Source: Candidatus Iainarchaeum sp. (GTDB lineage: Archaea; Iainarchaeota; Iainarchaeia; Iainarchaeales; UBA10191). Taken from it: DNA of 24,235 nt. The position numbers were made by a program, and so were the translations under genes. The stretch spans positions 1 to 24,235 of the forward strand of contig JAUSFL010000032.1 in assembly GCA_030649735.1 (NCBI GenBank), read 5' to 3'. Position 1 is the stretch's first letter. Each line of letters begins with the position of its first letter. Shown here in pieces: positions 1 through 17,058 of the stretch. The notes beneath the pieces are model-generated. The model was given only the letters and a program-made list of their open reading frames with translations. It ran no database searches and was not told the DNA's origin.

Positions 1-303
1 TGCCAAGTCTATTTTTACTAGAATATTGTCTTTTTTTGCTTCAAAAAATTTGAATTGTTCTTCATTTCTGGATTTTCTTTCACTAATTTCAAATTCTGGT
101 TTTAGGCAGTCCAAAAGCAACCCAGTGTTTCCGGAATAATACGCGTCTAAGTCAATTGACAATCTTTTGGGCCTTTCCAGAAGTGATTGAACAGCGCTGC
201 CGCCGATAAAAACAAAGCTTTCCTTATTCTCTCTGGCTTTCACTGCAAGCATTTCAAGAATTTCAAAAACTTGCTCTTGCCGTTTATTGAATTCAACATT
301 CAT
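1..303 (-). CDS. abiEii: AbiEii-family nucleotidyltransferase toxin (type IV TA), runs off the left edge
   Basis: Not in the ORF track. Hand translation from ATG at 303: MNVEFNKRQEQVFEILEMLAVKARENKESFVFIGGSAVQSLLERPKRLSIDLDAYY..., showing the GG(S/T)A and RxSxDLD motifs of AbiEii/pol-beta-like NTases. ATGA overlap with the upstream stop indicates translational coupling. Confidence 0.85.
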   Translation of the reverse strand, partial: MNVEFNKRQEQVFEILEMLAVKARENKESFVFIGGSAVQSLLERPKRLSIDLDAYYSGNTGLLLDCLKPEFEISERKSRNEEQFKFFEAKKDNILVKIDLA

Positions 304-974
304 GAATAATCAACTTCGTTAATTGCTTCCAAATACCGTTTTCCATTAGATAAATGCCGTAAGTCAAAAGAATAATTATCTTTCTTTGATGAGAGCTTGT
401 AAAGCATTATGTCAACAAACCAACCCAAGTATCTTCTTGTAGCATACCTTGACAAGACACCATAACGAATTATTGGCTTTTTGAGAAAATTGAAAAAGAC
501 TTCAGAAGTTTCTTTTACTGGAATAGGCAGCCACTCTCTTAAAGAGTAAGACAATAAATCAACAAGCATTCGTTCTAAAGAAGGCACTCTAATGTTGGAA
601 AATTCTTTTTTCCCAGCCATTAATGGCTTTGTTTCCTCAAAGTCTGTTCTTGTCAAAATAACAATCACGTCCCGAATTTCATTACTTCTGGCAGCAGCCC
701 AACTTTCATTAATTATTTTCGGCTTTCTTTCACCCTCATAAACCAAGCAATTCCTAAATTCCGAATCCCCAGCAATAAAGTTTATTATAGAATCTTTGGC
801 AGATTTCTCGCACTCTATAAAAATCATTGTTCTACGCACATTATGAAAATAAGGCAGGAATTCCGACAAATCCCAAACCCCAAACTTCAAATGGGGGTAT
901 TTATCAACTATTTTAACCGCCAATCTTCCAGTCCTATTAGCAACACCTGAATTGTCATATAAGTTATTTGTCAT
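300..974 (-). CDS. AbiEi-like antitoxin (DUF6577-like), apparently without an N-terminal wHTH
   Basis: PSLERMLVDLL resembles the (S/T)xExxLxD motif of AbiEi C-terminal domains; directly coupled to the AbiEii-like gene. Confidence 0.65.
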   Translation of the reverse strand: MTNNLYDNSGVANRTGRLAVKIVDKYPHLKFGVWDLSEFLPYFHNVRRTMIFIECEKSAKDSIINFIAGDSEFRNCLVYEGERKPKIINESWAAARSNEIRDVIVILTRTDFEETKPLMAGKKEFSNIRVPSLERMLVDLLSYSLREWLPIPVKETSEVFFNFLKKPIIRYGVLSRYATRRYLGWFVDIMLYKLSSKKDNYSFDLRHLSNGKRYLEAINEVDYS

Positions 975-995
975 ATAATCACTTTATATGACAAA
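952..995. promoter_or_regulatory. Three-copy operator over the TA operon start
   Basis: TTGTCATATAA at 952-962 and 968-978, inverted copy TTATATGACAA at 984-994; perfect 12-bp inverted repeat 967-978/984-995 with a 5-bp spacer; TATA-like TTTAAATA on the minus strand at about 999-1006. Confidence 0.7.
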
Positions 996-1060
996 AGTAT
1001 TTAAATCTTTCTAAACACCCCTCAAAAACCCTTCAAAACCGCACTTCCTGCACTTTCCAA

Positions 1061-1088
1061 CTGGCTTTTTACCGCCTAAAAAAGCCAG
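1061..1088. terminator. Inverted repeat downstream of VirB4 (terminator-like or protein-binding site)
   Basis: CTGGCTTTTT-accgccta-AAAAAGCCAG, perfect 10-bp stem ending 11 bp beyond the VirB4 stop. Confidence 0.4.
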
Positions 1089-1099
1089 AATGTAAGGTT

Positions 1100-3352
1100 T
1101 TAGGCTTTTGCAGTTTGGGCAACTGATTTTATTTTTTGAGTCCATTCTTTCACTTCGGTTCTGGTTATTGTTGCTCCGTATTTTTCATAATCTTGTTTGA
1201 TTATTGCTTGGGTTACTACGAAAGCCCAGTTTTTTCCGTAATTCTTTTCTAAATTTGCGATTTTAATGCCTAGTTTGGTTTTGTCTTTTTGAATGTCGTG
1301 TTCTGTTTGGATTTCTAAAGCGTATTTTGTTTTGTTGTGTGAGAATTCAATGTCTGCATCAACAGTATTTGTAGTCTTCACAAAGTCAAAGTTTTTACGC
1401 AATTCTTCAGCGATTAGTTCGGCGAGGAAGTAGTGTGCCGGGCTTTGATTACTTGGCGGATTATGTAGGTAGAATGATTGGTTTTTTCCTTCAAGGTTTG
1501 CGAATTTGATTTTTTTGAAATTGTTTTCTTTTAGGTAGCGTTCTTCATTGGTTGTCAGGCCTTCAGTTGGATAATAGTTTTTGTCAAGTTTGAAAGCGTT
1601 TTGTTTTGGCATCTGTTCTTGCTCTAGTTTCTGTTCAAATTGTTTGCGAGTTTGTTCTTTAGCATGAATTTCGTCGGGGTTTGTGGTTATTATCTCGTAC
1701 TCTTTTTTTGAGGCGACTACTGTTATGGGGATTCGGTCGTTCATTGCGAAGAGCAGGCCTTCGCCTTTTTGGGCTGTTAAAATGAAGTTTTGTTCTTCTT
1801 GGTTGAGGTTAAAACGCTCTCCTAGCTCTTTCATGACTACTGGCTCTTGCCTTAGCAAGAGCTTCCAGGCTGTGTTGGCTAGAATTGTGCGTCCGGCTTT
1901 GGAAAACAATAGGTCGTTGGCTTCTTGAGTGATTATTACCATGCCGAGGCCGTATTTTCTTGCTGTTTTGATGATTTCGAACAAATAAGTGGCTTGTTCT
2001 CCGTATCTTAATAAGCTCCAGGCTTCGTCAATGACTAAGAGCTTTCTGGCCTTGTCTTCCTGCATTCTCCTGTGAATAAAGTCTAAAATCAAGAACATCA
2101 TTACTGGTTTGACTTGGTTTGGCATGTCTGCAATGTTGAAGGAAATTAGGTCGTTTTGCAAATCTAGGTTGGTTTGCTTGTTTATGAAAGAGAATGTTCC
2201 CCTAGCGTAAATTCTAATCCTGTTTTCCAGGGCTTCGTAAGTCATTAGTTCTTGCCGACTGGCAGTCTTTTTTTCGTTGAGTAATTGCTGGTAGAGGTCT
2301 TCCATTATTGGCGGTTGCTTGTTCCAAGTTTCTGGATCGTGAGAGTAAATGCCTTTGGTATTGTAGGCTTGGTTAATGCACTTATCCAGAACATTCTTTT
2401 GCACTTCAGTCAATTCTCCGCACATAATTTTGAACAAGTCCATCAAGGACATCATTTTTTCCCCAAAATCCCGCCCCATCAAGTCAAAAGGATTAATGAT
2501 TGTTTCAGAATTGCGGGAAATTTCGATTAATTGGCCATTGTAAGTTTTAGTCAATTCAGTATACTCTCCTTGAGGGTCAATTATTAAGGTTTTGACATTA
2601 TTCATTAAATTTCGCAAAATGTAGAGTTTGACAAAAAAGCTCTTGCCAGCTCCGCTAGAGCCGATAATCAGGCCGTTGTAGTTTGTGAAAGTGTACTGGT
2701 CTAGAATTATTGGAATGTTGTTGCTTTGGTTTAGCCCGAACATTACTCCTTGCTCTTGAATGTTCAAAAAGCTGGAAGTGAATGGAAAGCAAGCAGCCAA
2801 AGCATTAGAAGTAATATTCCGAGATTCATTCAACTTGTCTTTTTGCAATGGAAGAATGCTTTGCAATGCAGGAAGCATTTGAAAGTACGGGGTTTTTGGA
2901 ATAATCATCATACTGTTCAATTCGCTTTCAATCTGTTTGGTTAAAAGATTGAGTTTTTTCTTTGAGCGCGCACGAGCATTAACGTAAAGGCTGAAATCAA
3001 AAAGTCTTTCCTCGCCTAATTGCAACTTTTCAAGTGTCTTTAGTGTGTCATTGTGTTGGACTTGCAAGACTGGGTTTACTATTCCTTTCATTTCTGAACT
3101 TAGAATGTCGCTTTTTTGCTTTACTAATTCTTGATTTAACTTTGTTAGGACTGTTTGAATGTGAGCTGGTTTCACATGCATGCTAATGTCAAAGTTTCCC
3201 TCACTAGTTATGAGGTTATTTAGCCAGCCTTCCTTAATCTGGCGAGGATAGCCAACAGCAGAAATGACTCTATTGTAATTTGTGTTCAATTGTATTGAAT
3301 CAATACTGTTTTTTACTAAAGATGGCTTCAGCAAATCTGCAAGTGTTGTCAT
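1100..3352 (-). CDS. virB4: VirB4-like ATPase with C-terminal PD-(D/E)xK-like extension
   Basis: Walker A GSSGAGKS, IIDPQGEY, Walker B LVIDEAW, ARKYGLG..ITQ and GEGLL motifs; N-terminal YPRQIKEGWL and TSNALAACFPF segments typical of Gram-positive/archaeal VirB4 (TrsE/ConE type). Confidence 0.9.
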   Translation of the reverse strand: MTTLADLLKPSLVKNSIDSIQLNTNYNRVISAVGYPRQIKEGWLNNLITSEGNFDISMHVKPAHIQTVLTKLNQELVKQKSDILSSEMKGIVNPVLQVQHNDTLKTLEKLQLGEERLFDFSLYVNARARSKKKLNLLTKQIESELNSMMIIPKTPYFQMLPALQSILPLQKDKLNESRNITSNALAACFPFTSSFLNIQEQGVMFGLNQSNNIPIILDQYTFTNYNGLIIGSSGAGKSFFVKLYILRNLMNNVKTLIIDPQGEYTELTKTYNGQLIEISRNSETIINPFDLMGRDFGEKMMSLMDLFKIMCGELTEVQKNVLDKCINQAYNTKGIYSHDPETWNKQPPIMEDLYQQLLNEKKTASRQELMTYEALENRIRIYARGTFSFINKQTNLDLQNDLISFNIADMPNQVKPVMMFLILDFIHRRMQEDKARKLLVIDEAWSLLRYGEQATYLFEIIKTARKYGLGMVIITQEANDLLFSKAGRTILANTAWKLLLRQEPVVMKELGERFNLNQEEQNFILTAQKGEGLLFAMNDRIPITVVASKKEYEIITTNPDEIHAKEQTRKQFEQKLEQEQMPKQNAFKLDKNYYPTEGLTTNEERYLKENNFKKIKFANLEGKNQSFYLHNPPSNQSPAHYFLAELIAEELRKNFDFVKTTNTVDADIEFSHNKTKYALEIQTEHDIQKDKTKLGIKIANLEKNYGKNWAFVVTQAIIKQDYEKYGATITRTEVKEWTQKIKSVAQTAKA

Positions 3353-3537
3353 AATTTTTCCCTCTCGATTTTCTTGTCCAATAATGCTTCAACCGCAAGT
3401 GCTTGAATTTTGTTCTGAATTCTCAACTGTTCAACAATTTCCTCACCCACTTGTTCTATGATTTCTTCAATCATTCTATTGTTTGCTTCCGCTGGCTGAA
3501 AACCATTCTGTTTTTTGGTTCTGCTCATTATTCTCAC
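3349..3537 (-). CDS. Small hypothetical protein between PrgI-like and VirB4 (true start probably 3528 or 3474)
   Basis: Stop overlaps the VirB4 ATG (ATGA); helical acidic sequence fills the operon gap. Confidence 0.5.
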   Translation of the reverse strand: MRIMSRTKKQNGFQPAEANNRMIEEIIEQVGEEIVEQLRIQNKIQALAVEALLDKKIEREKL

Positions 3538-4399
3538 TCTCCTTTAAAACCGTCAATGAACTCAAGTAATCGTTCTGGGCTTCGAAAAAGCCTTCAAAAA
3601 AGTTTGAAACCAAGCTCACAAGCTCTTGAGTTTTCAATCTTTCAGTTAATAAATTGCAGCGTTTTAGCTTTTCCCTGCAAACTTTTACTCTAATGTCTAA
3701 CTGGCTTTCCAATAGTTTCAAGTCTTGAGGTTTGTTTTTCAAGTTAAAGAAGTCAATTTTGCTCGGGCTTGCTGGGATTATGACATAAAACAGGCGGTTC
3801 TTGATTTTCTTTTTTTTAATGAAGTCTTGAATGAATCTTTTGAAAGACTCAAATTGAACCTGTAAGCCCTGTTTTTTAGTGCTTTCAACTTTTTTTTGTA
3901 AAACCGCCAAATACTCTGTTAGTGAAAGATTTACTGTTCTCATTACTATCTGGATTGGAAAATCCAAAGAATTCAGGAAGTCTTTGTACGCGCTAATAAT
4001 GGCTTTTTGCTCTTCGCCAGAAAGCATTGCAAAATGAATAGGAATTACCTGGATTACTGCCCTCGCGCTACCCCCGTTCAGGAAGATAACGTCATTTTTG
4101 ATGTCTTTTACTTCAACAAAATTGTTCAAACTTTTGTCAAAATAGCCTTGAATTCTAGGGGTTGAATAATAGTCTTTAATGATTTTCAAGTATTCAAACA
4201 AGTTCAGGAAGGCAAAGCCAACTCCCAAACCCATGAATACTAGCGAAATTGCAATTTTCACGGCAAAGTCTAAGTTAGTCTTGAAGAATACTACTCCAGC
4301 TAGGCAGCCGAACAAGCCAATCCAGGTTACTTGCCAGAAAGTTAGTCCGAACACTATTTTTTCAGTATACTTTAAGTTTTGTGGAATTTCATAAGGCAT
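3476..4399 (-). CDS. PrgI/VirB3-like membrane protein fused to a soluble TrsD/VirB4-N-like domain
   Basis: YEIPQNLKYTEKIVFGLTFWQ plus two TM helices (PrgI signature), then FAMLSGEEQKAII..FLNSLDFPIQI; upstream of VirB4. Confidence 0.8.
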   Translation of the reverse strand: MPYEIPQNLKYTEKIVFGLTFWQVTWIGLFGCLAGVVFFKTNLDFAVKIAISLVFMGLGVGFAFLNLFEYLKIIKDYYSTPRIQGYFDKSLNNFVEVKDIKNDVIFLNGGSARAVIQVIPIHFAMLSGEEQKAIISAYKDFLNSLDFPIQIVMRTVNLSLTEYLAVLQKKVESTKKQGLQVQFESFKRFIQDFIKKKKIKNRLFYVIIPASPSKIDFFNLKNKPQDLKLLESQLDIRVKVCREKLKRCNLLTERLKTQELVSLVSNFFEGFFEAQNDYLSSLTVLKESENNEQNQKTEWFSASGSKQ

Positions 4400-4468
4400 T
4401 TTTTCTCACTTTCCTCTTCTTCATTATTTCTAAAACTAAAATTGAACAATCGCACATTTTCAAACACC

Positions 4469-5311
4469 TCAAGCTAAAGCCATCATTGCAGGCCCAATCA
4501 TGCTTTTTCCAAGCTCTGCAAAATTCACGTTAACTCCGGCAGAACTTAAAGCCCGCTGGACTGCAAAAAACACTAAAACAATATTGGCAATTCCAACAAG
4601 CAAAAAACCCAGGCTTGGAGCCAGCAAGTTAATGTAAGGCAGGTAAGAGAATTCTGTCCAAAACAATTGCACAGCAATCAGAATTATTACATCTAAAACG
4701 TTCATGAAGGCTGCCGCGCCTAGCAATTGCAAGATTGCAGAACCGTAGGCTTTTACTGGTGGAATAAAGTACAGGAATAATCCGATTGGGAACAGCATTA
4801 CTCCAATAATCAGGAAGATTTGGCGCAAAACCAGAGTAATCACTGTCAAGAACACGGAAATTGCCAATGTCAATAGCCAAAGCAAGTCTGTCGCATTCAA
4901 GTTTTGGACTGAAAAAACATTCTCCAAGTTAGAATTCCATAAAGTTACTGAAATTCCCGAACTCAAGCTCAAAAGCAGTGAATAGAATAGCAAGGAAGCA
5001 TTAACTGCAATAACCAAGAGCAGGGCTTGCTTAAACCACTCTTTAGCCTCTGCCCTTTGCACTGCATCATAGCTTCCGAACAAGAATTTGAAGCCCACAA
5101 TCAAGAAAATAAGCAAGTAAAAGCAAGAGATTACTGTAATAATTACCAGCCACAAGTTTTGGAAGTGAAAAGGATCAATGTTTACTGTAAGCATTGCTTT
5201 AGCAATGTCAAACAAAGGCTGCACAAAACCAGCAAGCAAATGACCGATTCCAGAAAAGATAGAATTAACCAAGTCTCCCGGGAGATTGGTTATTGAATCC
5301 CACAAGCCCAT
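4469..5311 (-). CDS. VirB6/TrbL-like polytopic membrane protein
   Basis: About 6 hydrophobic helices; RQIFLIIGVMLFPIGLFLYFIP resembles the VirB6/TrbL core; operon position. Confidence 0.65.
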   Translation of the reverse strand: MGLWDSITNLPGDLVNSIFSGIGHLLAGFVQPLFDIAKAMLTVNIDPFHFQNLWLVIITVISCFYLLIFLIVGFKFLFGSYDAVQRAEAKEWFKQALLLVIAVNASLLFYSLLLSLSSGISVTLWNSNLENVFSVQNLNATDLLWLLTLAISVFLTVITLVLRQIFLIIGVMLFPIGLFLYFIPPVKAYGSAILQLLGAAAFMNVLDVIILIAVQLFWTEFSYLPYINLLAPSLGFLLVGIANIVLVFFAVQRALSSAGVNVNFAELGKSMIGPAMMALA

Positions 5312-6729
5312 TAGAACACCTTCCGAAAAGCATGCCTGGCAATCAAAAAAATGAAAAAATAAGCCGCAAGAAAACCAAAAGCCCCAATTAAAATATTCAA
5401 ACTTTGATTGTCTATTTGAGCAGTTCGCAAAGTTGCTGCTCCGTAAAATTCAGAATCCTGAAAACTGGCAGTAATAAGTCCATTGGATTCTTGGGAGTTG
5501 AAGTCTATTGGGACTTGGCCTTGAGAGTCAGTAATTAAAGTGCTTGATTTACTTCCCGCCGAAACATTAATTGTTTTGAAAGGCAATGGGTTTCCCGCAT
5601 TGTCAGAAAGTTTCAAAACATTCAAGTCAGTATCAAACTGCAAAACTGCCCGCTTCAATGTTTTAATATTGCATTCTTGAGTGTTTTGCTCAAAGCTTGA
5701 TGTTATTGTTTGCTGGCAGTTTTCCAAGCTCGTAGTGCCTAACCTGATTTTTCTTGAAGATTGAGAAAAATTAGAATCTAACTCCAAAAAGCCATTAACG
5801 TGCTCCGTAAACTCTGACCTTCGAGTAACAAACAATACTCCGTCAAGGTCAGAGTTTAAGTCAAAGTTTGCTTCTGAAAATTCAAAAGAGCCAGTGTTTG
5901 AAGAGAGTTTGAAATTATTGATTGGAGCGTTAGAATCCAGTAAAATTGTCAAAGTTTTCAAGTTGTTTGAATCTTCAAGCAATAACTCGGTTTTAAAATT
6001 CTCAATTACTGTTTTAGCGTTAAAAGAATCAATAATGTTTACTGAATCAGTTTGGTATTCTGTATTGTCAAAGTCGCAAGTTGTCCAATAATAATCATAA
6101 AAGCGGTGTTGTGTGAGCTTGTAATGGTCTGTTCTCAACCTTGCAGATAATGAAAGGCGAGTTTCAAAATTTAATGTTCCGTAATCTTTTGAAGTAATGT
6201 TGTAAGAGACGTCTTTTGAATTTCCTAAAAGCTGGTTGTTCAGGAAAGTCTGCAAGCTCTCGCTTAATGAATCGTAAGAGTAATTTGTTTGGCAATCCCA
6301 AGATTGCGTGCTTGAAGGTAAAACAATAGAAAAACCATAATTTGAGAATTCCTGGCCCGCTGGTTTAGCAAACCATTCATTAGAATTCAAGTCAAAAAAA
6401 GAGTTCTCAACGCTAATCACTTTTACCCAAGCGTTCTGGATTATTCCATTACTTGCTGGAGTAATGCTCCGTGGCGGTTGAGTAAAAGATAGATTCTTGT
6501 TCCATTCAAAAACAGAACTAAAAGAGCCTAATTCTCCTTGTTCGTTTGAAAGGTTAAAGAACAAATCTTGTTGTTGCTCTGTGTTCAAGCTAGAGTCCTG
6601 AAAGATTTTCTGGCATTCTTCAAGCTTCCAGTCATTAAAGCGCGAGCAATCGCTTTCAGAAATTGCAGTTGCAAAACTTCCAATCATCAAAAACACCACT
6701 AAAAACGCAAACCTCATTTGAAAAACCAA
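5311..6729 (-). CDS. Secreted, C-terminally anchored protein of the T4SS-like operon (start probably the ATG of MRFAF)
   Basis: Signal peptide, Cys pairs, Ig-like LSDNAGNPLPFKTINV..TDSQGQV segment, C-terminal TM helix and basic tail. Confidence 0.7.
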   Translation of the reverse strand: MVFQMRFAFLVVFLMIGSFATAISESDCSRFNDWKLEECQKIFQDSSLNTEQQQDLFFNLSNEQGELGSFSSVFEWNKNLSFTQPPRSITPASNGIIQNAWVKVISVENSFFDLNSNEWFAKPAGQEFSNYGFSIVLPSSTQSWDCQTNYSYDSLSESLQTFLNNQLLGNSKDVSYNITSKDYGTLNFETRLSLSARLRTDHYKLTQHRFYDYYWTTCDFDNTEYQTDSVNIIDSFNAKTVIENFKTELLLEDSNNLKTLTILLDSNAPINNFKLSSNTGSFEFSEANFDLNSDLDGVLFVTRRSEFTEHVNGFLELDSNFSQSSRKIRLGTTSLENCQQTITSSFEQNTQECNIKTLKRAVLQFDTDLNVLKLSDNAGNPLPFKTINVSAGSKSSTLITDSQGQVPIDFNSQESNGLITASFQDSEFYGAATLRTAQIDNQSLNILIGAFGFLAAYFFIFLIARHAFRKVF

Positions 6730-6743
6730 CGCAACGGGGGGAG

Positions 6744-6773
6744 AACTCCCCCAACCTTCCGGCTGGGAGAGTT
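6744..6773 (-). other. RNA hairpin after the pilin gene
   Basis: Minus strand AACUCUCCCAGCC-GGAA-GGUUGGGGGAGUU: 13-bp stem with two G-U pairs and a GNRA tetraloop. Confidence 0.6.
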
Positions 6774-6782
6774 TTTGGGAGT

Positions 6783-7100
6783 TTAAACTGTTGCGGGGGA
6801 TGTCAAAAAACTAACCATTAACGGCGCAACCCAAACCACGACCAAGCCGACAATTGCATAACCAAGCATTGACTTAGCTCCCTCGCGAGCTTGGATATTG
6901 TCGCCGGAAAACATGAACTTGACGCCGGCAAAAGTAATAGCCAAAACAGCAACTACTGAAATAACCGCCTTAACCAAGTCATAAATCTTGTCTAATGGCG
7001 CGGTAATCTGGGAAACGTCAGTCGCGGCATGCACTGTAGGCAAAGCCAGCAAAAACACAGCGAACAAAACCACAACAATATTAGGGTAAATTCCTTTCAT
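6783..7100 (-). CDS. TrbC/VirB2-family pilin
   Basis: Signal peptide ending VHA, two hydrophobic helices separated by GVKFMFSGDNIQAREGAK, AIVGLVVV; SD GGAGG at 7109-7113; first gene of the operon. Confidence 0.8.
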   Translation of the reverse strand: MKGIYPNIVVVLFAVFLLALPTVHAATDVSQITAPLDKIYDLVKAVISVVAVLAITFAGVKFMFSGDNIQAREGAKSMLGYAIVGLVVVWVAPLMVSFLTSPATV

Positions 7101-7235
7101 TCAAAAAACCTCCAAGTTTCATACAACCCATTCTGCAGGCTTCAAATAAATACTAGCAACTCAAGACTTCTCATGAGAAAACCTGACAAAGGCTAATAAA
7201 AACCTCGAAAACAGAACTAATGCAGGTGATTGAAA

Positions 7236-7394
7236 GTGCAAACTGAAACGATCCAAAAAAACAAAGAACTCCAAGTTACTCTTGAAGAGTTTGAAAAAAT
7301 GCACTCAAAACCATTCATGTATATTCTAGAACAATACGAAAAATGGCAAAAACTCAAAGAACAAGCAGGAATGCAAACAAGACTACAGGACTAA
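7236..7394 (+). CDS. Small hypothetical protein (52 aa), divergent from the pilin operon
   Basis: Not in the ORF track. SD GGTGA at 7225-7229, GTG at 7236, MQTETIQKNKELQVTLEEFEKMHSKPFMYILEQYEKWQKLKEQAGMQTRLQD, stop converges on the lipoprotein stop. Confidence 0.5.
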   Translation: MQTETIQKNKELQVTLEEFEKMHSKPFMYILEQYEKWQKLKEQAGMQTRLQD

Positions 7395-7398
7395 TCCT

Positions 7399-8085
7399 TT
7401 AAGATTTTGCATTTAATTGTGCTTCAAAAACTGAATTAAAATATTTTCCAACCCGTTCAAACACTTTGTTCTGGTCGGAATTAAGCCCGGTAGTATAACC
7501 TAATTGAGCAATTAATTTGTTTTTTCTAACAAAAAACAAGTAAATGTCAAAGTTGCCTTCTCTTGCATAAACATCTTGATAAAGCTGTTTTGGCTGGCCA
7601 TTGAAGATTTTGTCCAATTTCTCATAATTAGTGCCTTTAAACACTATGGAATAATCTCCCAGTTTTGGGGCGTCTATTTCCCTCATCCAATTGGCTTGCT
7701 CTCTGATTTTAGGGACTTGCTGGTTATATTCCAAAATACTGTTAGTGTCAGAAACTTCATTAGCATACCGGAAAGAAACCCAGCCAATCTTGGAATTGTC
7801 AATCTTATTATCGTAACCAACTCCAAAAGCCGTTTTATAACCAAGAACCACTTTATTCAAGTCTATCCCAATAACGTAACCGTCATTTGCTACCTCAGTT
7901 ATTGTCAAATAAGCATTATAGTCTGGAAAAGAAAAGTTTACTGGCTCTTTAGATTCAACCAACGCACTGCTACTATTCTTATCAATATTCTTGTCAGCTA
8001 GGTCTGTTTTTTGTGTGTTCTGGTTAGCGCAACCAGTTAATAGGATCGCAAGAATAAGCCCTAACAGCATGATTGTTTTCTTCAC
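7399..8085 (-). CDS. Lipoprotein of unknown function
   Basis: MKKT-hydrophobic-LLTGC lipobox; GTGA overlap with the upstream ORF. Confidence 0.75.
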   Translation of the reverse strand: MKKTIMLLGLILAILLTGCANQNTQKTDLADKNIDKNSSSALVESKEPVNFSFPDYNAYLTITEVANDGYVIGIDLNKVVLGYKTAFGVGYDNKIDNSKIGWVSFRYANEVSDTNSILEYNQQVPKIREQANWMREIDAPKLGDYSIVFKGTNYEKLDKIFNGQPKQLYQDVYAREGNFDIYLFFVRKNKLIAQLGYTTGLNSDQNKVFERVGKYFNSVFEAQLNAKS

Positions 8086-8294
8086 GTTTCAAGAAAGGAA
8101 TTAGACATATTTAAACGTTGCTTGATTAAAAAACCGCGATAGCCGCAAGCCTTGCACTTTCCTAAAGCTGCCTTTTGCTTTCCAACCAAAGTCCCAAGTT
8201 CCAGCAGGCCTGGGTTAGCGTTCTCGCATTTAGGGCACTTTACTCCAAAAGGCAATTCGCTTTTCTTCTTTTTCCAGAAAATCAAGCAATCCAT
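8082..8294 (-). CDS. Small Zn-ribbon protein
   Basis: CPKC...CKACGY knuckles; coupled to the lipoprotein gene. Confidence 0.6.
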   Translation of the reverse strand: MDCLIFWKKKKSELPFGVKCPKCENANPGLLELGTLVGKQKAALGKCKACGYRGFLIKQRLNMSNSFLET

Positions 8295-8384
8295 AAAACC
8301 GCCATTAAAATTTTATACTAGGACTCCCTAACCAATACAGCTAATTCTAAAACAATCACAAAACAAAAATTATCCCGCCCTTAT

Positions 8385-9443
8385 TTAGAAGATACTTCCC
8401 TTTCCCTGGCCTGCAAGCATTGTGTCCACAAATGCCAATACTTCTTCGGAATTCCTGACTTCTCCGACAATGACCCTGTCAGGCCGCATTCTCAAACTGT
8501 CAATTATCAAGTCTTTCATTCCGACATTCAAGCCTTCGCTCACGTTCAATTTTATCAAGTGCTCGTGCATTATCTTGAGCTCTGGAGTCTCTTCAACTGC
8601 AATGATTCTTTCATTTTCAGGCACAAAGCAAAACAGCGCGTTCAAAAGGCTGGTTTTTCCAGAGCCAGTGTTTCCAGCAATCAAAACGCTGGAGTCTGTC
8701 TGGAATGCAATTTGCAAAAAAGCCAAGGCTTCTGCAGTTGCTGTCTTGTTTGCAGCCAAATCCAATGGAGAGAATGGCTTTTTCCCGAACTTTCTGATTG
8801 TCACATTAGGCCCAAGGAAAGATACTGGCTCTATGCTGCATGAAAGCCGCGAGCCGTCAGGAAGCATTGCGTTAAGCCTTGGGTTTTGCATGCTCAAGCG
8901 CTTTCCCAACCGCCTGGCCATTTTGTTCACTGCATTTTTCACGCTGCTTTGGTTTGCGTAAGAAAAATTAGTCTTTAGCCAGCCTAATTTTCTGTCAAAA
9001 ACCCTCACCGGCTTTTCTTTGCCCAAGCCGGTTATTGCGATTTCTTCAATGCTTTCGTTCTCCAAAAGCCTTGACAATGGCCCAAATCCGAATGCTGAAA
9101 GCCTTAAGATTTCCAGCAAGTATTCTTCCTGCCCGGAGTCAATTTGAACCAAATTCCTGTCGCAGAATTCCTTGAAGAAAAACTCCAAATTGTTCAATTC
9201 TTCAAACTCCGGGTTTGACAATAGCTTGAATTCTTCAAAGGCCTCGGCCAAAAGCCCTGCCTCTTGAATGCTTAATTCCGGAAGATTGATGCAGTAAAGC
9301 AATTCCTTGCCTTTCAATTCAACAATCCTGCAGCTTTCATTCTCAAAAACTGTTTTCAGCATTTTTTCGCGCGCTGGCTGCCATAAAACCCAGCCTAAAA
9401 GAAAGCCTGCCTTGGCAGTTTCATCAATTGCCTGTTCTTCCAT
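8385..9443 (-). pseudogene. TadA/CpaF/VirB11-family secretion ATPase, 3'-truncated
   Basis: FGPLSRLLEN..IEEI, LPDGSR, TIRKF, Walker A GNTGSGKTS, AVEETPEL, SLRMRPDRVIVGEVR; stops at LAGQGKGSIF before the TxHA His-box and the C-terminal part expected for the family. Confidence 0.75.
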
Positions 9444-9572: not shown

Positions 9573-12500
9573 TTACTTTTTGCCCTTGCTTTTCTTTCCT
9601 TTAATTACAAATACTGCCGCAATGACTACAATTATTACAATCACTGCAACCAAAACAAGGTTGTTGTTTTCCTTCTGCTTTGCATCTGTTGTCGGGCTTG
9701 GCGCAGGTGCTGGATTATTCACTGGCGGAACAATGACTTCTTTTGCAATGCAGCTTCCCGCCTTGCAAACCTTGCCTGTACCGCAGCTTGAATTGTCAGC
9801 TATTGCAGCATTAGAGCAAGTGTTGCTTGAGCAAGTGTCTTGCGTGCATGGGTTGCTGTCGTCACAATTCATTGTAGGGCACAAGTCTGCAGCCGCTTCC
9901 GCAAATTCTGCAACAACTGCCTGCGGTATGGAATCAGCAGTGGCTTGGCTGATGTTTTTTGCAGTTGAATAATTCACTGTTGCAACTCCGCCTGCGGGAA
10001 TCTCGGCAATCTCAAACTCTATTATTGGATCGTCCTTTACAATCCTGTATTTCACTCCTGCCGGAAATTGCAGTTCTGAAGCGCTTAGAGCCACTGTTTT
10101 TGGCACTTCAACCAATACTTTCACTTTCTTCAAGATTTTGGTCTTGTTAGGATTGCTTACTGTGAAAGTTATTGTTGTAGTGTATGTTTTCACTCCGCTT
10201 GCGGAAGTTGTCTCGTCAACGTTTACTTCCTTTGTGACAGTGGTTTTTCCAACTGCTTCTGAAGCCTTTTGAATTGCATTCTCTGAAGCTCCAGCGCTTG
10301 TCAAAAGGTTTCTAATGTCTTCAGCGCTTGGCTTTCCTTCTGAAGTCTTGTGGATTATGTTCTTTTTTCCTTCAGGTGTTTCTGCTGGAGGGCCTGTTGT
10401 TCCTCCGCCAGGGCTACCGCCGCCTGGACTTGCTCCAGTATTGTTTCCACTTGTTGCGGCTGTTAAAGTGAATGCAACGCTTGTTGTGGCATTATTGTCT
10501 GCCCTGTCTATTGCCCTAATGTAAATTGTGTGGGCTCCAACAGTTTCTATTGTCACATTATAGCTTGTTGAAGTGGAATTGTCAACCCAGCTTCCGCTAT
10601 CAACTTTTGCCTGGTATAGCTTGATTCCACTTCCTCCAGTATCGCTTCCAGAGTATGTTACTGTAACATTTTGCGTGCCTGCTGCATAACTGTATCCTGC
10701 AGTTGGAGCGCTTATTGAAACTGTTGGCGCGTTATTGTCAATGTAGACGTTTCTGGAAACAACCAAAGCATTTCTGTCCGGCTGGTTAATGTCCAAATCA
10801 ATCCAGTGGTTTCCGTCAGGCACTAATGCTAAGTTAAAGTCTGCAGTGCTTGGCACCCAGTTGAAAGTGCAGTTTGATGAATTATTGTACTTTGCGTTAG
10901 TGTCTGAGTTTAATGGATTTAGTATGCAAGTGAATGCGAATGCGTTAGAATCTACTGATAAAATGTTGAAGTCTTGGGCTATTAGATTGGTCATTGCGCC
11001 GTTAGTGTCGCTCCAGTAAAGCTTTGCATGCAGGAAAGACTGAAGGGGAGATGTAGCCAAGTGCACTGCATTCCAGTCTGCTGCCCAGTTGAAGTCAAGC
11101 AATAATCCTTTCTTTCCGCTTGCATAAGTTGTCACTGTCGGAGTATTGAAGTTAACATCCAATGCAGTGGTTCCATAGTTGGAGAACCCAGTAACTTTGA
11201 AAGTTATGTTACCGTCTTTTGTGTTAGGATCAACAAACCAGTTGTAGTCAGAGCAAACATTGCTTGCACATTTAACGCCGTCCCTTGCAATTACAGGCAT
11301 TTTGCCTGAAAGGCTTCGCACGTTAAATATCGTGATGTTTGCGTCAATGCTGAATTCTGGCATTTGTGCAGAGTCAATTCCGAACAGGTTCTTGCTCTGA
11401 TTCCTCGTCATGTTGTTGTTATAGTTTGCCTGTGGAGTCTTCATCAAGTTTACGTCAGTATTCATTGCAATGCGCGCCAATGCAGTGGTCTTTGCATCAT
11501 TCAAGAATTCTACAACCATTCCTTTCATTGCTTGAATTTCCGACTGCTGTACTTTATTGTTTTTCATGACAACATCTATCGGGTATCTGAATGCATTTAC
11601 ATCGCCTGCTTCCTTTCGATAGCACGAGTGGTTTCCGTCACAAATTAGCACTGTAACATTCATGTCTGCAGCCAGTGTTTGGCTCGGCATTGCATAAAAG
11701 CTGGTTGTTCCTCCAAACAAGTTTACATTAATATCGTCAACATCAGACCTTATCCTGTTGTTAACATCTGTAACTCTTGCATAAAGCAAGTAAGGGTTGC
11801 TGAACGGGGTTAGAGTTGTTGGAACAACGACATTGACGTCAAACATGTAAATGAAGCGATTACTGTCAATTCCTGTTGCAATATTTCCAATTCCTCTGCC
11901 GATTGCACCAGCATTAATATCAGTCAACCTGTCAATCCTGACTCTGTTTCCATCGCGGGAAAGCGCGGCAGTTGGAGTTGCCTGGTTTCCATAGCCAGAA
12001 TATACTGTTCCGTTTCCATCAATAATAAGGTTCAAATCAAGGCTTCCAATCCTTAAAGCAATGTTTTGGTCTTTGTAAAATCCATATCCTCTCACATGGA
12101 AATTCTTGTCTAAAGCCCCAAATGGAGTGTATTGTAGCCCATTAGGTGTTGAAATAAATCTGTTAAAATCGCCTGTTGAAGCGCCCCTATTGAAATTAAT
12201 ATCAAAGTTTTTATCTCTTTCTGAGTTTCTATCTGGAATTATCATTAAAAAAGGGGTTACAAAAATTTGCAATGTTGCTTGGATTGCGTTAGGGTTAAGG
12301 TTGTTGTTGTCTCTTATTGCAATAATGTTCATTCCTTTTCTTGCTGTTGAGGGAATGCGCAAGAAAACATTGGCATCAGTTCCATTATGGTCCATATTGA
12401 TTGCCCTACCTCCAATATTTCCGTCTCCAACAATTATGAGTAAATTGGTGTCGCTTCTTATTACATTGAAGTCCTTATTTCCAACATTTGCATCTACTAT

Positions 12501-12725
12501 TCTAGAAACAGTCAATGCGACATTACTGTCTGTAGGCAGCATTATTGTCAGAATAAAATCGTAGTTTTTGTCCGGCGCCAAGCCCCTGACCAATACATTG
12601 ACATTTGCGTCTACTGAGTAATATACGTAATTGTTGTCCGGCAGGCTCATGCTTGGAATTGCGCTTGCAACTCCAGTAATTGCTGCCATTGCCAAAAGTA
12701 TGAATAAGAACTTCAAAATTTTCAT
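9573..12725 (-). CDS. Large membrane-anchored surface protein (S-layer-like/adhesin), D-x-N rich
   Basis: Signal peptide, Asn-rich beta domains, Ig-like DNNAPTVSISAP domain, Gly/Pro linker, VEVPK..DPIIEF domain, CDDSNPCTQDTC module, Pro linker, TM helix and lysine tail. Confidence 0.85.
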   Translation of the reverse strand: MKILKFLFILLAMAAITGVASAIPSMSLPDNNYVYYSVDANVNVLVRGLAPDKNYDFILTIMLPTDSNVALTVSRIVDANVGNKDFNVIRSDTNLLIIVGDGNIGGRAINMDHNGTDANVFLRIPSTARKGMNIIAIRDNNNLNPNAIQATLQIFVTPFLMIIPDRNSERDKNFDINFNRGASTGDFNRFISTPNGLQYTPFGALDKNFHVRGYGFYKDQNIALRIGSLDLNLIIDGNGTVYSGYGNQATPTAALSRDGNRVRIDRLTDINAGAIGRGIGNIATGIDSNRFIYMFDVNVVVPTTLTPFSNPYLLYARVTDVNNRIRSDVDDINVNLFGGTTSFYAMPSQTLAADMNVTVLICDGNHSCYRKEAGDVNAFRYPIDVVMKNNKVQQSEIQAMKGMVVEFLNDAKTTALARIAMNTDVNLMKTPQANYNNNMTRNQSKNLFGIDSAQMPEFSIDANITIFNVRSLSGKMPVIARDGVKCASNVCSDYNWFVDPNTKDGNITFKVTGFSNYGTTALDVNFNTPTVTTYASGKKGLLLDFNWAADWNAVHLATSPLQSFLHAKLYWSDTNGAMTNLIAQDFNILSVDSNAFAFTCILNPLNSDTNAKYNNSSNCTFNWVPSTADFNLALVPDGNHWIDLDINQPDRNALVVSRNVYIDNNAPTVSISAPTAGYSYAAGTQNVTVTYSGSDTGGSGIKLYQAKVDSGSWVDNSTSTSYNVTIETVGAHTIYIRAIDRADNNATTSVAFTLTAATSGNNTGASPGGGSPGGGTTGPPAETPEGKKNIIHKTSEGKPSAEDIRNLLTSAGASENAIQKASEAVGKTTVTKEVNVDETTSASGVKTYTTTITFTVSNPNKTKILKKVKVLVEVPKTVALSASELQFPAGVKYRIVKDDPIIEFEIAEIPAGGVATVNYSTAKNISQATADSIPQAVVAEFAEAAADLCPTMNCDDSNPCTQDTCSSNTCSNAAIADNSSCGTGKVCKAGSCIAKEVIVPPVNNPAPAPSPTTDAKQKENNNLVLVAVIVIIVVIAAVFVIKGKKSKGKK

Positions 12726-13681: not shown

Positions 13682-16090
13682 TTAACGCAAGTTCTTGTTC
13701 AAAAGCGTCAAGGCCAGTATTGCAAATGCCGGAATCAGCAGGACAATTGCCTCAAAGCCCAGATTGCCTATTGTGTTTCCCTTGACCATTACTTCGCTGA
13801 GCATTGTTATTGAAACAGTCAATGGCAGGACTTGCGCAAATCCTTGGATTATCGGGTTCATTAACTCTAAAGGCATTATGACTCCGCTCAGGAAAAGCAT
13901 TGGAATAATGAAAAGCAATGACATCAGGATTGTCGTTCCCTGGTTTTTCGTGAAGTTTGAAATCAAAAGCCCCCAGTTAATGAAAGCGAAAGAGACGAGG
14001 ACAATTGCCAAGAACACTTCAATAAGGCTTCCTGCAATTGTTATCTTGTAGTTTGTGAAATTGTCCAGCAGCAAAAGCAACGCAATTATTATTGCGGCCT
14101 GGATCAAGGCAAAAATCAGCTGGCCTAAAATTTTTCCTGCAAAGAGAATTGATTTTGGAGTAGTGCTTAAAACCATCCTGCTGTAAGCGCCTTGGTTTCT
14201 TTCGTCAACAAAGCTGACTCCAGTCAAAAGGATTGTGGTAAGCAATAGCAATAGCACAAGCGCAATTGGCACTGCAATTCCAAGCCTTTCAACCTTGAAC
14301 ACTTGGATTTTGTTCAAAATCAAAGGGTCTGCCAAGAATTCAGGGCTTATTCTCCCAAGCTCTTTCAGTGAGTCCATGAAAGAGCCAATCATTCTTTTGG
14401 ATTCCTTGAGCTTTGCCCCGACTTCCTTTTTTTGCTCTTTGGAATTTGCTATCAAGGTTTTGACTTCACTGAGTGTTTGGTCCAGCTTGTTTACAAAAAC
14501 TTCCATTTTGTTCAAGTCATTCTGCGTTTCTGAAATGTCAGTCTTCAGTGCCTGAATGTCCTGTTTGTTTTTCTGCAGTTTTGCCCGAATTCCAGTTTCC
14601 GGCTGGTTTATTTTTGCGGAGAATTCAGCGAGGTCTACTTCAATTCCTGAAAGGTCTGTGTAAACTCCGCTTAATTCTGTTTGAACTTCATTAATTTGCG
14701 CGTTAATGTCATCAACAACTCCGAGCAGTTCAGTCCTTGCAGGCTCTGGGCTTTGCTCAATGGTTTGCCTAGTTGAAGAAAGCCTTGCGCTCAAATATCC
14801 GATGTCTCCTTGGCTTTTTGCTATCTTCACTTTGTAAGCTGCGACTTTTGTTCTTGTAGCGTTGATTTTGGAATTCATGTCTTCAATAGTGGCCAAAAAG
14901 CCGTCAAGTTCAGAATCAAATTCGTCAATTTTTTCGTTAAACTGGCTTATTTTTTCAGACTGCCTTGAAAGAGCGCCTTTGGCGTCAGCAATGTTCAATT
15001 CATTAAGGTCTGCTTCCAATTGGTTGAGTTTTCTGTCGCTTTCATCAAGCTTTAGTATGAAATCGTCAATTCTTGAAACTTCGTTTCCCAAATCCTTGTT
15101 TATTTGCCCAAGCTCTCCCCAAATTTCCTTCAATAGGGACTGGGACATTGAATATCCAATGTTTTGAACTTGGCTTTTTGCGACTTCAAAAAAAATTGCT
15201 GAACTGCTTATTGAAGAATTGTCATAATACAAGTCTATGACGTATTTTCCAAACTTGGATTCTGGATTGTTCACTACAATTCCAACCTTGCTTTCCCTTT
15301 TTTTTATTGACTCAAGGACTTTTTCCTTTGAGTTAAAATTGTGCATTTTGACAAGGCCTGATTTTGAAAGGCTTTGCTTAAAGTAGTCAATGTTGAAGTC
15401 TTTCACGCTTTTTGGCGCGTAAATTGCGACATCAACTTGGGTTATTGCATTGTTGCCTCCAAAAGACAATGCCAGTGTTGCCATTACAACAACAGCCAAT
15501 GTAAGCGCGGTAAGCAATCCTGCCTTTTGGCTTTTTATCAAATTCAATTCTTTCAGCGCAATCTTAAAAACAGTCAAGCCCGGAAGCTCGTCAATTTTTT
15601 CAAAAAGTGGGTTTCCTCTGGATTCTTTTTTTGTTTTTTCCAATGCTTTTTTTGAAAGCTCTTTTGGACCTTCAGCAATTATTTGCTCGTTTAGATCAAC
15701 AACCATTGTCTTTGCCAAGCCATCGCCAACTCGTCTCGTGTCTGGGTTTTTTCCTTTAGCCAAGGCTATTTGGAAAAATGCAATCAACTCGGTTCCAGGA
15801 ATCAAGAATATACAATTTCTAAGGATTGAATCCCAAATTCTTGCTGGCTGTGAATTACTGATTTTTATTGTTTTGAGATTCAACAATTTTTTTCCAATGC
15901 TTTGGCCTGAAAGCAATCCGTCTTTGCAGAGCATGTACACAACAGCGATCAATCCGCCAAGGTTAATGGAATAAATTGAAAGGTTCAATTGCCAAAAAAC
16001 AAGAATGATTGCAAGCGCGACAAGGCTGTCTGCAATGAATGCCGCAGTCCTTTTCCAAAGTCCTCCCCCAATGTAGTTTATTTCAACCAT
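13682..16090 (-). CDS. ABC-2 type permease with N-terminal RDD domain and long extracellular coiled coil
   Basis: KRTAAFIAD, GQSIGKKLLNL, RRVGDGLAKTMVV (RDD); ERNQGAYSRM, GKILG, FLSGVIMPLELM, LPLT (ABC-2); heptad-rich central region. Confidence 0.85.
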   Translation of the reverse strand: MVEINYIGGGLWKRTAAFIADSLVALAIILVFWQLNLSIYSINLGGLIAVVYMLCKDGLLSGQSIGKKLLNLKTIKISNSQPARIWDSILRNCIFLIPGTELIAFFQIALAKGKNPDTRRVGDGLAKTMVVDLNEQIIAEGPKELSKKALEKTKKESRGNPLFEKIDELPGLTVFKIALKELNLIKSQKAGLLTALTLAVVVMATLALSFGGNNAITQVDVAIYAPKSVKDFNIDYFKQSLSKSGLVKMHNFNSKEKVLESIKKRESKVGIVVNNPESKFGKYVIDLYYDNSSISSSAIFFEVAKSQVQNIGYSMSQSLLKEIWGELGQINKDLGNEVSRIDDFILKLDESDRKLNQLEADLNELNIADAKGALSRQSEKISQFNEKIDEFDSELDGFLATIEDMNSKINATRTKVAAYKVKIAKSQGDIGYLSARLSSTRQTIEQSPEPARTELLGVVDDINAQINEVQTELSGVYTDLSGIEVDLAEFSAKINQPETGIRAKLQKNKQDIQALKTDISETQNDLNKMEVFVNKLDQTLSEVKTLIANSKEQKKEVGAKLKESKRMIGSFMDSLKELGRISPEFLADPLILNKIQVFKVERLGIAVPIALVLLLLLTTILLTGVSFVDERNQGAYSRMVLSTTPKSILFAGKILGQLIFALIQAAIIIALLLLLDNFTNYKITIAGSLIEVFLAIVLVSFAFINWGLLISNFTKNQGTTILMSLLFIIPMLFLSGVIMPLELMNPIIQGFAQVLPLTVSITMLSEVMVKGNTIGNLGFEAIVLLIPAFAILALTLLNKNLR

Positions 16091-16095
16091 AAAAA

Positions 16096-17058
16096 TCAGT
16101 CTTTCAGTTTCCTTCCAGTCAAGTTAATGAACACGTCTTCCAGTTCAGGCTCTCTTAAAGTTGAGCTTTTGATTTCATAGCCTTTGGCGTTGATGAAGTC
16201 TGTAATCATTGAAATTTTTTCAAGGCTGTGCTCTTGCGAAAGCGCAATGACTATTGCGTTTCCTAAGCTTGTGACTTCGCTTCCGATAAGTATTCTTTTC
16301 AAGGCCTCGACAAAGTCGCTTTCTGGAATTTTTTCAAGCATTACAACAAGCACTTTGAAGCCGCCGTATTCTTCAATTAGTTTTTTCGGGCTTTCGCAAA
16401 CGAGGAGCTTTCCTTGATTGATGATTCCAACCCTGTCGCACAAGTGCTCTGCCTCATCCATGTAGTGCGTTGTAATGCAAATTGTCTTTCCATCGTCCTT
16501 CAACGTTTCAATGATTTCCCAAAACAATTTTCTCATTTTTGGGTCAAGGCCGACTGTTGGCTCGTCGAAAAAAATCACGCGCGGGTCATGGACTAGAGAG
16601 CACGCAATGTTCAAGAGCCTTTGATAGCCTCCTGACAAATTTTCAACCTTGCGGTTTTCAAACTGCTTTAACTGCAGCCATTCAAGCAGGTATTCCCTTC
16701 GCTTTTTCAGCTCTTGGCCCTTGATTCCGTAAAGAGTCCCAAAAAAATCAAGGTTTTGCTTCACGCTGAATGAATAGAACGCGGCAATGTCTTGCGGGAC
16801 AATCGCGACTTTTCCCTTGATTAGCGAGTGCTGTTTTTTCAGGTCTGCGCCAAAAAACCTAACATTTCCTGAATCAGCGTCCATCATTCCCATCAGGATC
16901 TTTGATAAAGTGCTTTTTCCCGCGCCATTAGGCCCTAAAAGCCCGAAAACTTCATTCTCCAGAATGTAAATGCTAATGTCTGAAAGCGCCGCAAAACTCC
17001 CGAACTTTTTTGACACTTTTTCCGCAACGACAATTGCTTTCTTTTCCTTTGAAGGCAT
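16096..17058 (-). CDS. ABC transporter ATP-binding protein (DrrA/CcmA-like)
   Basis: GPNGAGKS, LSGG, FFDEPTVGLDP, TTHYMDEAE, C-terminal LEDVF. Confidence 0.95.
   Translation of the reverse strand: MPSKEKKAIVVAEKVSKKFGSFAALSDISIYILENEVFGLLGPNGAGKSTLSKILMGMMDADSGNVRFFGADLKKQHSLIKGKVAIVPQDIAAFYSFSVKQNLDFFGTLYGIKGQELKKRREYLLEWLQLKQFENRKVENLSGGYQRLLNIACSLVHDPRVIFFDEPTVGLDPKMRKLFWEIIETLKDDGKTICITTHYMDEAEHLCDRVGIINQGKLLVCESPKKLIEEYGGFKVLVVMLEKIPESDFVEALKRILIGSEVTSLGNAIVIALSQEHSLEKISMITDFINAKGYEIKSSTLREPELEDVFINLTGRKLKD

Follow-up and report, generated by a model that had tools for sequence, protein, structure and literature searches.

The stretch analysed here, hereafter the window, is an entire contig of 24,235 nucleotides (nt) (G000:C3:1-24235), and our analyses indicated that an integrative mobile element has, very probably, recombined into the coding sequence of a TadA/CpaF-like pilus/secretion ATPase gene of an Iainarchaeia archaeon. 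The source genome bin, G000, comprises 51 contigs and 1.28 Mb (92.7% complete, 2.3% contamination). The host is a tiny groundwater archaeon of the Iainarchaeia (Diapherotrites, DPANN), a placement that fits the named homologues. The 5' part of the ATPase gene lies in the window (contig C3), its 3' part lies on contig C47 of the same bin, and both parts carry an identical 8-bp attachment (att) core at the break.

The interrupted ATPase gene and its att junctions

The features that define the insertion are as follows.

8395..9443, minus strand: host-derived 5' part of a TadA/CpaF-like (T2SSE superfamily) ATPase gene, from the N-terminal domain to GQGKGS
8385..9443, minus strand: truncated ATPase open reading frame (ORF) with element tail, 352 amino acids (aa)
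8395..8402, minus strand: att core AAGGGAAG in gene direction (CTTCCCTT on the plus strand), identical at C47:51621-51628
8385..8394, minus strand: element-side arm TATCTTC (8388-8394) and TAA stop (8385-8387), encoding the tail -IF*
1..8394, minus strand: left-hand portion of the integrated element, running from attL to the end of the contig; G+C 37.7% vs 41.5% in the host part of the contig
G000:C47:51203-51658, minus strand: ORF of the ATPase 3' fragment with His box and C-terminus, 151 aa, found by profile and homologue search

An initial annotation of this DNA had claimed that the ATPase ORF is intact through Walker B and then stops at LAGQGKGS-IF, and translation together with the Pfam T2SSE profile confirmed it. 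Only profile positions 51-236 of 370 were covered (E 3.4e-27), and the C-terminus of the 352-aa ORF is ...LAGQGKGS-IF, the sequence at the ORF end being ...RPDRVIVGEVRNSEEVLAFVDTMLAGQGKGS-IF followed by the TAA at 8385-8387. Walker A (GNTGSGKT), the Asp box (ERIIAVEETPE) and Walker B (RPDRVIVGEVR) are present and the ORF ends before TFHA; the four boxes do not stand together in the window ORF, the His box being on the C47 fragment, whereas the intact gene of relatives has Walker A, Asp box, Walker B and His box all in one polypeptide. That the family continues with a His box, as had also been stated, was seen in 107 of the 120 best homologues from a large protein collection, which carry (Y/F)xTFH(A/G/S) and ~130 further residues past GQGKGS. 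The usual homologue length is 470-600 aa, with ~480 aa for the full-length homologues in the alignment; the break falls at ~73% of the gene, between Walker B and the His box, and ~130 residues are lost. The possibility, raised in the same annotation, that close homologues naturally end at this position did not hold up: most continue, and the short ones carry non-homologous tails. The AT-rich non-coding DNA that it had described past the stop was recovered at 8295-8384 (90 nt, 32% G+C, no listed ORF of at least 40 aa).

The full-length homologue P0005 scored 157.6 bits against the TadA model (cut-off 373) and 170.9 against the FlaI model (cut-off 550), and the target ATPase is a distinct archaeal branch of the T2SSE superfamily that adjoins two T2SSF genes. 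The other T2SSE genes in G000 are paralogues, only 25-37% identical. Many of the target-ATPase orthologues (P0009-P0013, P0024, P0059, P0068 and others) have an N-terminal cysteine-rich 4Fe-4S ferredoxin-type domain; P0011 is in the alignment.

The 3' part was located by a whole-genome search with the T2SSE profile and P0005. It exists, as had been predicted, near a T-F/L-H-A motif (...KGSYCTFHAQS): G000:C47:51224-51643 (minus strand) aligned with P0005 residues 340-476 (E 6.8e-39), the fragment covers T2SSE profile positions 239-285 while the window ORF stops at 236, and it is 58% identical to residues 347-476 of P0004. The ORF begins MLIKRLEKED-KGSYCTFHAQSTRDAITRLKKLGVLEIDLL..., that is, with an element-borne ATG leader in frame with KGSYCTFHAQS. 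The initial annotation erred in placing this part to the left of the window, since the window is a whole contig and the 3' part is on C47; the outcome that it had named as speaking against an insertion, namely that no 3' remnant exists, is contradicted by the remnant there.

The TadB/C-like genes and the recombinase that were expected beside the remnant were both found. Downstream of the 3' fragment and on the same strand, C47 carries two T2SSF (TadB/C-like) genes (E 4e-7 and 2e-10) and a PAC2 gene, and upstream, on the opposite strand, a 368-codon integrase ORF runs off the contig end. The integrase matched PF00589 Phage_integrase (E 5.6e-17, 62.5 bits, cut-off 27.1, profile positions 2-169 of 172) and also PF13495 (SAM-like N-terminal domain). 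The start of its ORF is within the element, at ~50 nt from the core, and full-length relatives have 451-475 aa. As candidates for the catalytic residues R..K..HxxR..[H/W]..Y, the motifs ALRASEL, HLLRH, GW and YVH were recognised in its translation by eye, with residue-level alignment reaching as far as the first Arg: the only solved relative, 4a8e (XerA-like, E 4e-7), aligned over residues 159-285 only, spanning that Arg. On the plus strand of C47, 23 nt ahead of the integrase ATG, stands a TTTTATAA box, which may represent an archaeal TATA box for a leaderless integrase mRNA.

The att junction had been placed at about 8390-8400 with the prediction of a repeated core, and the same 8 bp were indeed found at window 8395-8402 and C47 51621-51628. 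Here attL corresponds to window 8385-8402 and attR to C47 ~51621-51632. In gene direction the window junction reads ...GGCCAGGGAA-AGGGAAG-TATCTTC-TAA and the C47 junction ...GGAAGATA-AGGGAAG-CTACTGCACTTTTCAC..., the core having the same codon phase at both (AAG GGA AG-). The core AAGGGAAG supplies the K-G-S codons of GQGKGS, an invariant motif that immediately precedes the His box. The element-side flanks, GAAGATA and TATCTTC, are exact 7-bp inverted repeats of each other with a spacer of 7 bp between them, and the deduced attP is an arm-spacer-arm of 7-7-7 bp, a layout typical of tyrosine-recombinase core sites. When joined, the host-side flanks give GQGKGSYCTFHA, identical to the intact gene in relatives; because of this identity and the like phase of the core at both junctions, precise excision would be expected to restore the frame. 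The segments of the related contig L040 that BLAST aligned with C3 and with C47 have 12 nt in common at the core, the empty-site contigs of run X2 part from the window at 8395, and the predicted crossover lies within the 8-bp core.

Intact genes in related genomes, for which the initial annotation had proposed to look, were found in L040, L037, G001 and contigs of run X2. L040, a 1760-nt metagenome contig of a close relative, carries an uninterrupted ATPase gene; its nt 1-258 correspond to C3 8648-8392 at 94.6% and its nt 247-1760 to C47 51628-50115 at 89.1%. The 14.85-kb contig L037, whose ATPase is 69% identical, follows C3 20707-8394 in collinear order and passes from there straight to C47 51673-45497, and the site is intact in the same-genus genome G001. 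Three short contigs of X2, a run from a different study, match the window from 8395 upward, and the 30 letters that follow are identical to the 3' sequence of the uninterrupted L040 gene. Among the best matches (E <= 1e-72, 61 genomes of the order) 51 of 54 cross the site, two are cut by contig ends and one, that of G000, is interrupted. On the basis of these empty sites and the synteny in relatives, the host chromosome is reconstructed as C3 24235-8395 joined to C47 51628-1, and the element as C3 8394-1 followed, across an unassembled gap, by C47 52781-51629. The metagenome scan gave only five loci, and the contigs of P0003 and P0019 were not among them.

Recurrence and horizontal movement of the element

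Eight of the 120 best homologues, the window ORF included, end at GQGKGS with a non-homologous tail; P0019, P0021, P0039, P0044 and P0097 are among the interrupted ones. The tails at the break read IF, SFQVTSI, ISRIGAC, TLHFMSN, IFQNRSF and IFQIRAC, and those of P0044 and P0097 also begin with IF. Two further homologues stop here as well, P0009 at the motif itself and P0033 within the His box, the latter probably because its contig ends. An intein or intron as the cause of this recurrent break was rejected because the frame does not continue, the tails vary by lineage and the 3' part lies beyond an integrase-bearing element. When the 151-aa fragment was used as query against the large protein collection, only P0122 and P0123, besides the fragment itself, were retrieved as free-standing 3' fragments; P0122 is a true junction relative, 74% identical and with the same MLIKRLEKED leader, and P0123, whose start lies upstream of the site, was probably truncated by the end of a contig.

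Integrase relatives at E <= 1e-25 are present in 73 of the 196 genomes of the order, and 19 integrase loci, besides that of G000, were fetched from this set. An ATPase 3' fragment stands beside the integrase at five of the 19, comprising the four best-scoring matches and one 77%-identical partial; the identities to the G000 integrase are 81% in G122, where the gene is complete, 50% in G185, 49% in G189, 44% in G053 and 77% in G124 (a contig-end piece). No ATPase fragment was found within ~1.5 kb at the remaining 14 loci (34-48% identity). Of the nearest integrase relatives, which come from five other species, four are at the GQGKGS site and one is at a second motif, EETPEI.

Matching 5' fragments of G185 and G189 were found on other contigs and end in GQGKGT followed by an element tail, with cores at the GQGKGS-site codons of 8 bp in G185 and 12 bp in G189. 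These fragments are followed by homologues of the pilin, the membrane protein, the PrgI-like protein and VirB4, a 210-aa protein and AbiEii, in the same order as in the window. Farther along, the G185 and G189 elements carry a PD-(D/E)XK nuclease, a SNF2-type helicase, an ArdC-N/M78 protein and restriction-like genes. The cargo of the G189 element (L062 2412-6830) includes a multicopper oxidase, a cupredoxin-like protein and a DsbA-like thioredoxin; the window element differs there.

The insertion at the second motif was found in G053.

L068 380-1294 and L067 2023-2637, minus strand: ATPase fragments of G053
L067 2638-3894, plus strand: integrase of G053, 44% identical to that of G000

In this genome the 5' part ends with EETPEI and a tail, the 3' part resumes with PEIHIPHKH, and a 9-bp core, CCGGAAATC, is present at both junctions.

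Comparison of G185 with G189 revealed identities of 92.5% for the integrases and 82.9% for VirB4, against only 53% (5') and 37% (3') for the ATPase fragments of the hosts and 47% for a flanking host gene. The integrases of G000 and G122, whose hosts belong to different families, are 81% identical, and the host 3' fragments 43%. The much closer likeness between element genes than between the target genes of their hosts is indirect evidence that the element moves horizontally; the elements appear to have entered diverged hosts separately, at the same codons, and the identities are evidence that the family crosses family-level host boundaries.

Gene content of the element and its surroundings

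The element measures at least 9.5 kb in G000 and at least ~25-35 kb in relatives. Scoring of the window proteins against Pfam and NCBIfam gave the following genes, listed from attL outward.

8082..8294, minus strand: small protein of 70 aa with two CxxC pairs, first element gene after attL; no Pfam/NCBIfam match
7399..8085, minus strand: 228-aa protein with lipoprotein-like N-terminus (...LLTGC); no family match
6783..7100, minus strand: pilin of the VirB2/TrbC type of type IV secretion systems (T4SS), 105 aa; PF18895 T4SS_pilin, E 1.8e-14, 54 bits (cut-off 26.6)
5311..6729, minus strand: secreted or membrane-anchored protein, 472 aa; no family match
4469..5311, minus strand: polytopic membrane protein in VirB6 position, 280 aa; no Pfam/NCBIfam match
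3476..4399, minus strand: PrgI/VirB3-like (TrsD-like) T4SS membrane protein, 307 aa; PF12666, E 1.8e-6, 28.9 bits (cut-off 27)
1100..3352, minus strand: VirB4-like conjugal-transfer ATPase, 750 aa; NF045971 (CD1110 family), 334.5 bits (cut-off 325)
300..974, minus strand: DUF6577 protein; PF20217, E 2.3e-12
1..303, minus strand: AbiEii-like nucleotidyltransferase toxin gene, start only, running off the contig; PF08843, weak, E 0.005

The window VirB4 also matched PF19044, PF12846 and PF03135 and is 57% identical to the VirB4 proteins of G185 and G189. The PrgI-like protein matched NF041427 TrsD under the cut-off (E 2.5e-5) and is 50% identical to its G185/G189 counterpart, and the VirB6-position protein shares ~40% identity with the product encoded between the pilin and VirB3 genes of these two elements. 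The initial annotation had proposed that the element brings its own pilin system. A pilin is present, which also matched PF04956 TrbC (E 1e-10) and shares 53% identity with its counterparts in the G185 and G189 elements; by Pfam it is of the VirB2/TrbC T4SS type and not the type IV (Tad) pilin that had been supposed. Taken together, the secretion genes resemble a monoderm-type (MPF-FATA-like) T4SS, the class being assigned by model scores. No relaxase appeared among the Pfam matches of the window genes and of 32 larger ORFs of the G185/G189 elements, no dedicated relaxase search having been made. VirB4, the pilin and the horizontal spread suggest a conjugative character.

The two CxxC pairs of the 70-aa protein are reminiscent of a zinc ribbon. 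In the G185 and G189 elements the gene at the position of the AbiEii-like gene matched AbiEii at E 1e-26 to 5e-29, and the DUF6577 and AbiEii-like genes probably form an AbiE-type toxin-antitoxin pair. A PF08843 search of G000 for the rest of the AbiEii gene returned only the window's own weak match, and with the G185/G189 element proteins as queries only C3, C47 and C36 were matched in G000. Contig C36 (1079 bp) carries at ~5-721 (minus strand) a second VirB6-position homologue, 40% identical to that of the G189 element, which could derive from another T4SS element or a strain variant.

Upstream of the ATPase gene the window carries host genes, the first of which lies in a region syntenic with L037.

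9573..12725, minus strand: host surface protein of 1050 aa with signal peptide and C-terminal membrane anchor, as read from its translation

Farther on, an 802-aa ABC-2 permease with an N-terminal RDD domain and a long coiled-coil middle is encoded at 13682-16090 (minus strand), and its ABC ATPase partner is adjacent at 16096-17058 (minus strand). A free-standing LAGLIDADG-type homing-endonuclease-like gene (18544-19482, plus strand; PF14528, E 4.6e-20) stands directly after an undecaprenyl-diphosphate-synthase-family gene (17692-18480).

Proposed mechanism, alternative readings and known systems

According to the insertion reading, the element's own tyrosine recombinase would exchange strands within the 8-bp core AAGGGAAG, leaving a 5' ORF in which Walker A, Asp box and Walker B are retained and to which the element adds only -IF-stop, and splitting the 3' part and the two TadB/C-like genes from it. 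Because the His box and the C-terminal domain are lost, the ATPase, and with it the Tad-like machine, would be off while the element is in place. The secretion genes would serve the cell-to-cell transfer of the element, and the conserved catalytic-motif DNA would offer a landing pad that is alike in very different hosts.

Several observations weigh against the insertion reading. The two halves are on separate contigs of a metagenome bin and were never found on one molecule; a single cell line for C3 and C47 is supported by the synteny with L037 and L040. The element is unclosed, C3 ending inside the AbiEii-like gene and C47 inside the integrase gene, and the ends of C3 and C47 have no exact overlap (15-200 nt) with each other or with any contig end. 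No excised form, empty site or circle was found in the contigs of the source sample, contigs being known to drop rare variants. All gene fragments remain open frames, which fits either a recent insertion or a split gene that is still useful. The core is only 8 bp long, and the dyad GAAGATACTTC at 8388-8398, the sole GAAGNNNCTTC in the window, is not significant alone: at least one such dyad occurred in 39 of 100 shuffles, in agreement with the initial annotation, which had judged it too short to count by itself. The dyad consists of the element-side arm (8388-8394) and the end of the core, and it gains meaning from this position, the core being repeated at the other junction. As to a conjugative apparatus, PF02534 detected a coupling protein (VirD4/TraG) in none of five genomes (G000, G185, G189, G122 and G053), and PF12696 gave a weak match in one of the five, inside VirB4 itself; as the elements remain unclosed and genome completeness is 67-93%, this absence is not proven.

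An extension of the insertion reading is that reversible integration into a Tad-like filament motor gene acts as a genetic switch, which we consider unlikely. The integrated element would silence a filament that a DPANN cell may use for partner attachment or DNA/virus uptake and deploy its own conjugative pilus, and precise excision would rebuild the ATPase gene. If this were true, the two independent target motifs (GQGKGS and EETPEI) would mean that the gene itself is selected as target and not just a conserved DNA word, and such an archaeal gene-interrupting switch element may be a first.

A working split gene, in which the 352-aa and 151-aa pieces are both made and assemble into an active ATPase at low cost to the host, is improbable. 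Both fragments are intact open frames in G000, G122, G185, G189 and G053, and an ATG-led leader in frame with the 3' part recurs in P0122 and, diverged (MYIKRLKKSK), in G122. In G185 and G189, however, a stop lies seven codons upstream of the junction in the 3'-fragment frame and the first start is ~20 codons into the host-derived part, so that an element-supplied start is not a general feature. Conservation of the leader is moreover explicable by the integrase promoter: ATGCTTATAAAA in the 3'-fragment leader is the reverse complement of the TATA-like TTTTATAA, and this promoter box would also account for the ATG-led leader on the opposite strand. The split, moreover, lies in the catalytic core and separates Walker B from the His box.

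It is less probable still that the arrangement is an assembly or binning artefact, either a chimera of C3 at ~8390, for which the initial annotation had allowed, or a grouping of C3 and C47 from different organisms. The genome is a 51-contig metagenome bin, and in run X1 the element contigs have depths of ~6-9 and the host contigs of 12-17, values that are not comparable between contigs. Against it, a Logan contig of X1 (1244 nt) bridges the junction, spanning 7181-8424 with 0 differences, X1 being the probable source sample and thus not independent; the junction peptides are shared with other records, the IF* tail also ending P0002 (75% identical) and P0003 (72%) and the leader occurring in P0122; G185 and G189 show the same architecture; and in L037 and L040 the flanks from C3 and C47 are in one molecule of a relative.

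The X1 contig ends 30 nt past the junction, which fits a branch of the assembly graph; together with the depths, this could be a hint of a mixed population with empty sites. Loose ends of X1 at 8453, 8460 and 8495, in the conserved Walker B region, were taken as ATPase genes of other organisms, and the sides of the X1 joints 1796/2082, 2630/6321, 2804/2887 and 2908/3113 have only 21-22 letters. For runs X3 and X4 the fraction of sampled words from the stretch was 0.00, and the few short X3 pieces (18-36 nt) belong to contigs of other organisms.

A naturally short VirB11-like ATPase of the element's own secretion cluster, suggested by the position of the ORF directly upstream of the T4SS genes on the same strand, by the scores of P0005 against VirB11 and TrbB models (well under the cut-offs) and by several homologues of similar length (345-357 aa), is, provided that the C47 remnant is related, already refuted, as the short homologues stop at the same codon with unrelated tails, the 3' part exists with a shared core, and the intact orthologues in L037, L040 and relatives have adjacent TadB/C genes and no T4SS genes.

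To our knowledge, the mobile elements of DPANN archaea are almost unknown, and the insertion reading supplies a defined element family that has its own integrase and att site and is known from several independent insertions. For the most part, archaeal elements integrate in tRNA genes or at gene ends and mend the gene that they have cut; a family which cuts a conserved catalytic core without repair has made an unusual target choice. The insertion raises the question of whether it represents a cost, an exclusion or a surface-filament switch, and a further question is the role of a conjugation-like apparatus without recognisable coupling protein in tiny, probably partner-dependent cells. A full-text literature search, supplements not included, found no T4SS-bearing integrative element for Iainarchaeia, Diapherotrites or DPANN, no archaeal element targeting a pilus ATPase gene and no archaeal gene-interrupting switch element.

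Bacterial examples of elements that interrupt a gene and restore it on excision include a Listeria phage (in comK), the skin element of Bacillus subtilis (in sigK) and the comM islands. The element described here shares with them a site-specific recombinase, insertion into coding sequence, an in-frame core and a target in a surface, uptake or attachment apparatus. It differs in its archaeal host, in bearing a T4SS and not being a prophage, in that excision is here only predicted, and in that a whole integrase clade is tied to one gene with two target motifs. The integrase is unsplit and at one end of the element, which corresponds to the pNOB8-like mode of archaeal integration.

Sections of two papers (PMC9905601, PMC12102498) describe the Ced/Ted DNA import of Crenarchaeota as a reduced T4SS with a VirB4-like ATPase and VirB2-like pilins, without a coupling protein or relaxase of bacterial type; the window system is likewise built on a VirB4-like ATPase and a VirB2-like pilin. 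Ced and Ted are chromosomal host systems, whereas the window T4SS is element cargo, and in this analysis the CedB model scored only 52 bits against a cut-off of 700. MPF-FATA systems are reported, in a portion of PMC12102498, from monoderm bacteria, archaeal conjugative plasmids and Patescibacteria, most of the patescibacterial ones without relaxase. As in those systems (PMC12102498, same portion), the VirB4 passes the CD1110-family cut-off and a VirB2-like pilin and a PrgI-like protein are adjacent; unlike those described there, the present genes are on a site-specific integrative element in a DPANN archaeon.

The closest comparison is offered by the integrative-conjugative and cryptic elements of Thaumarchaeota that are inserted in protein genes, for which excerpts of Krupovic et al. 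2019 (PMC6563490) give 3'-distal insertion and a worked example in which the frame is rebuilt. In contrast to what these excerpts describe, the window element cuts the catalytic core, with ~130 residues lost; most Thaumarchaeota elements treated there carry a VirD4/TraG ATPase, while none was found here by PF02534 or PF12696, and the host here is a DPANN archaeon. The elements in those excerpts lack a recognisable relaxase and likewise none turned up for the window element, without a dedicated search. As with the Thaumarchaeota elements (PMC6563490, same excerpts), a tyrosine recombinase, short att sites, homologues of VirB4, VirB6 and VirB3, and pilins are present; in both cases the sites are verified by empty sites in relatives and some of the targets are protein-coding.

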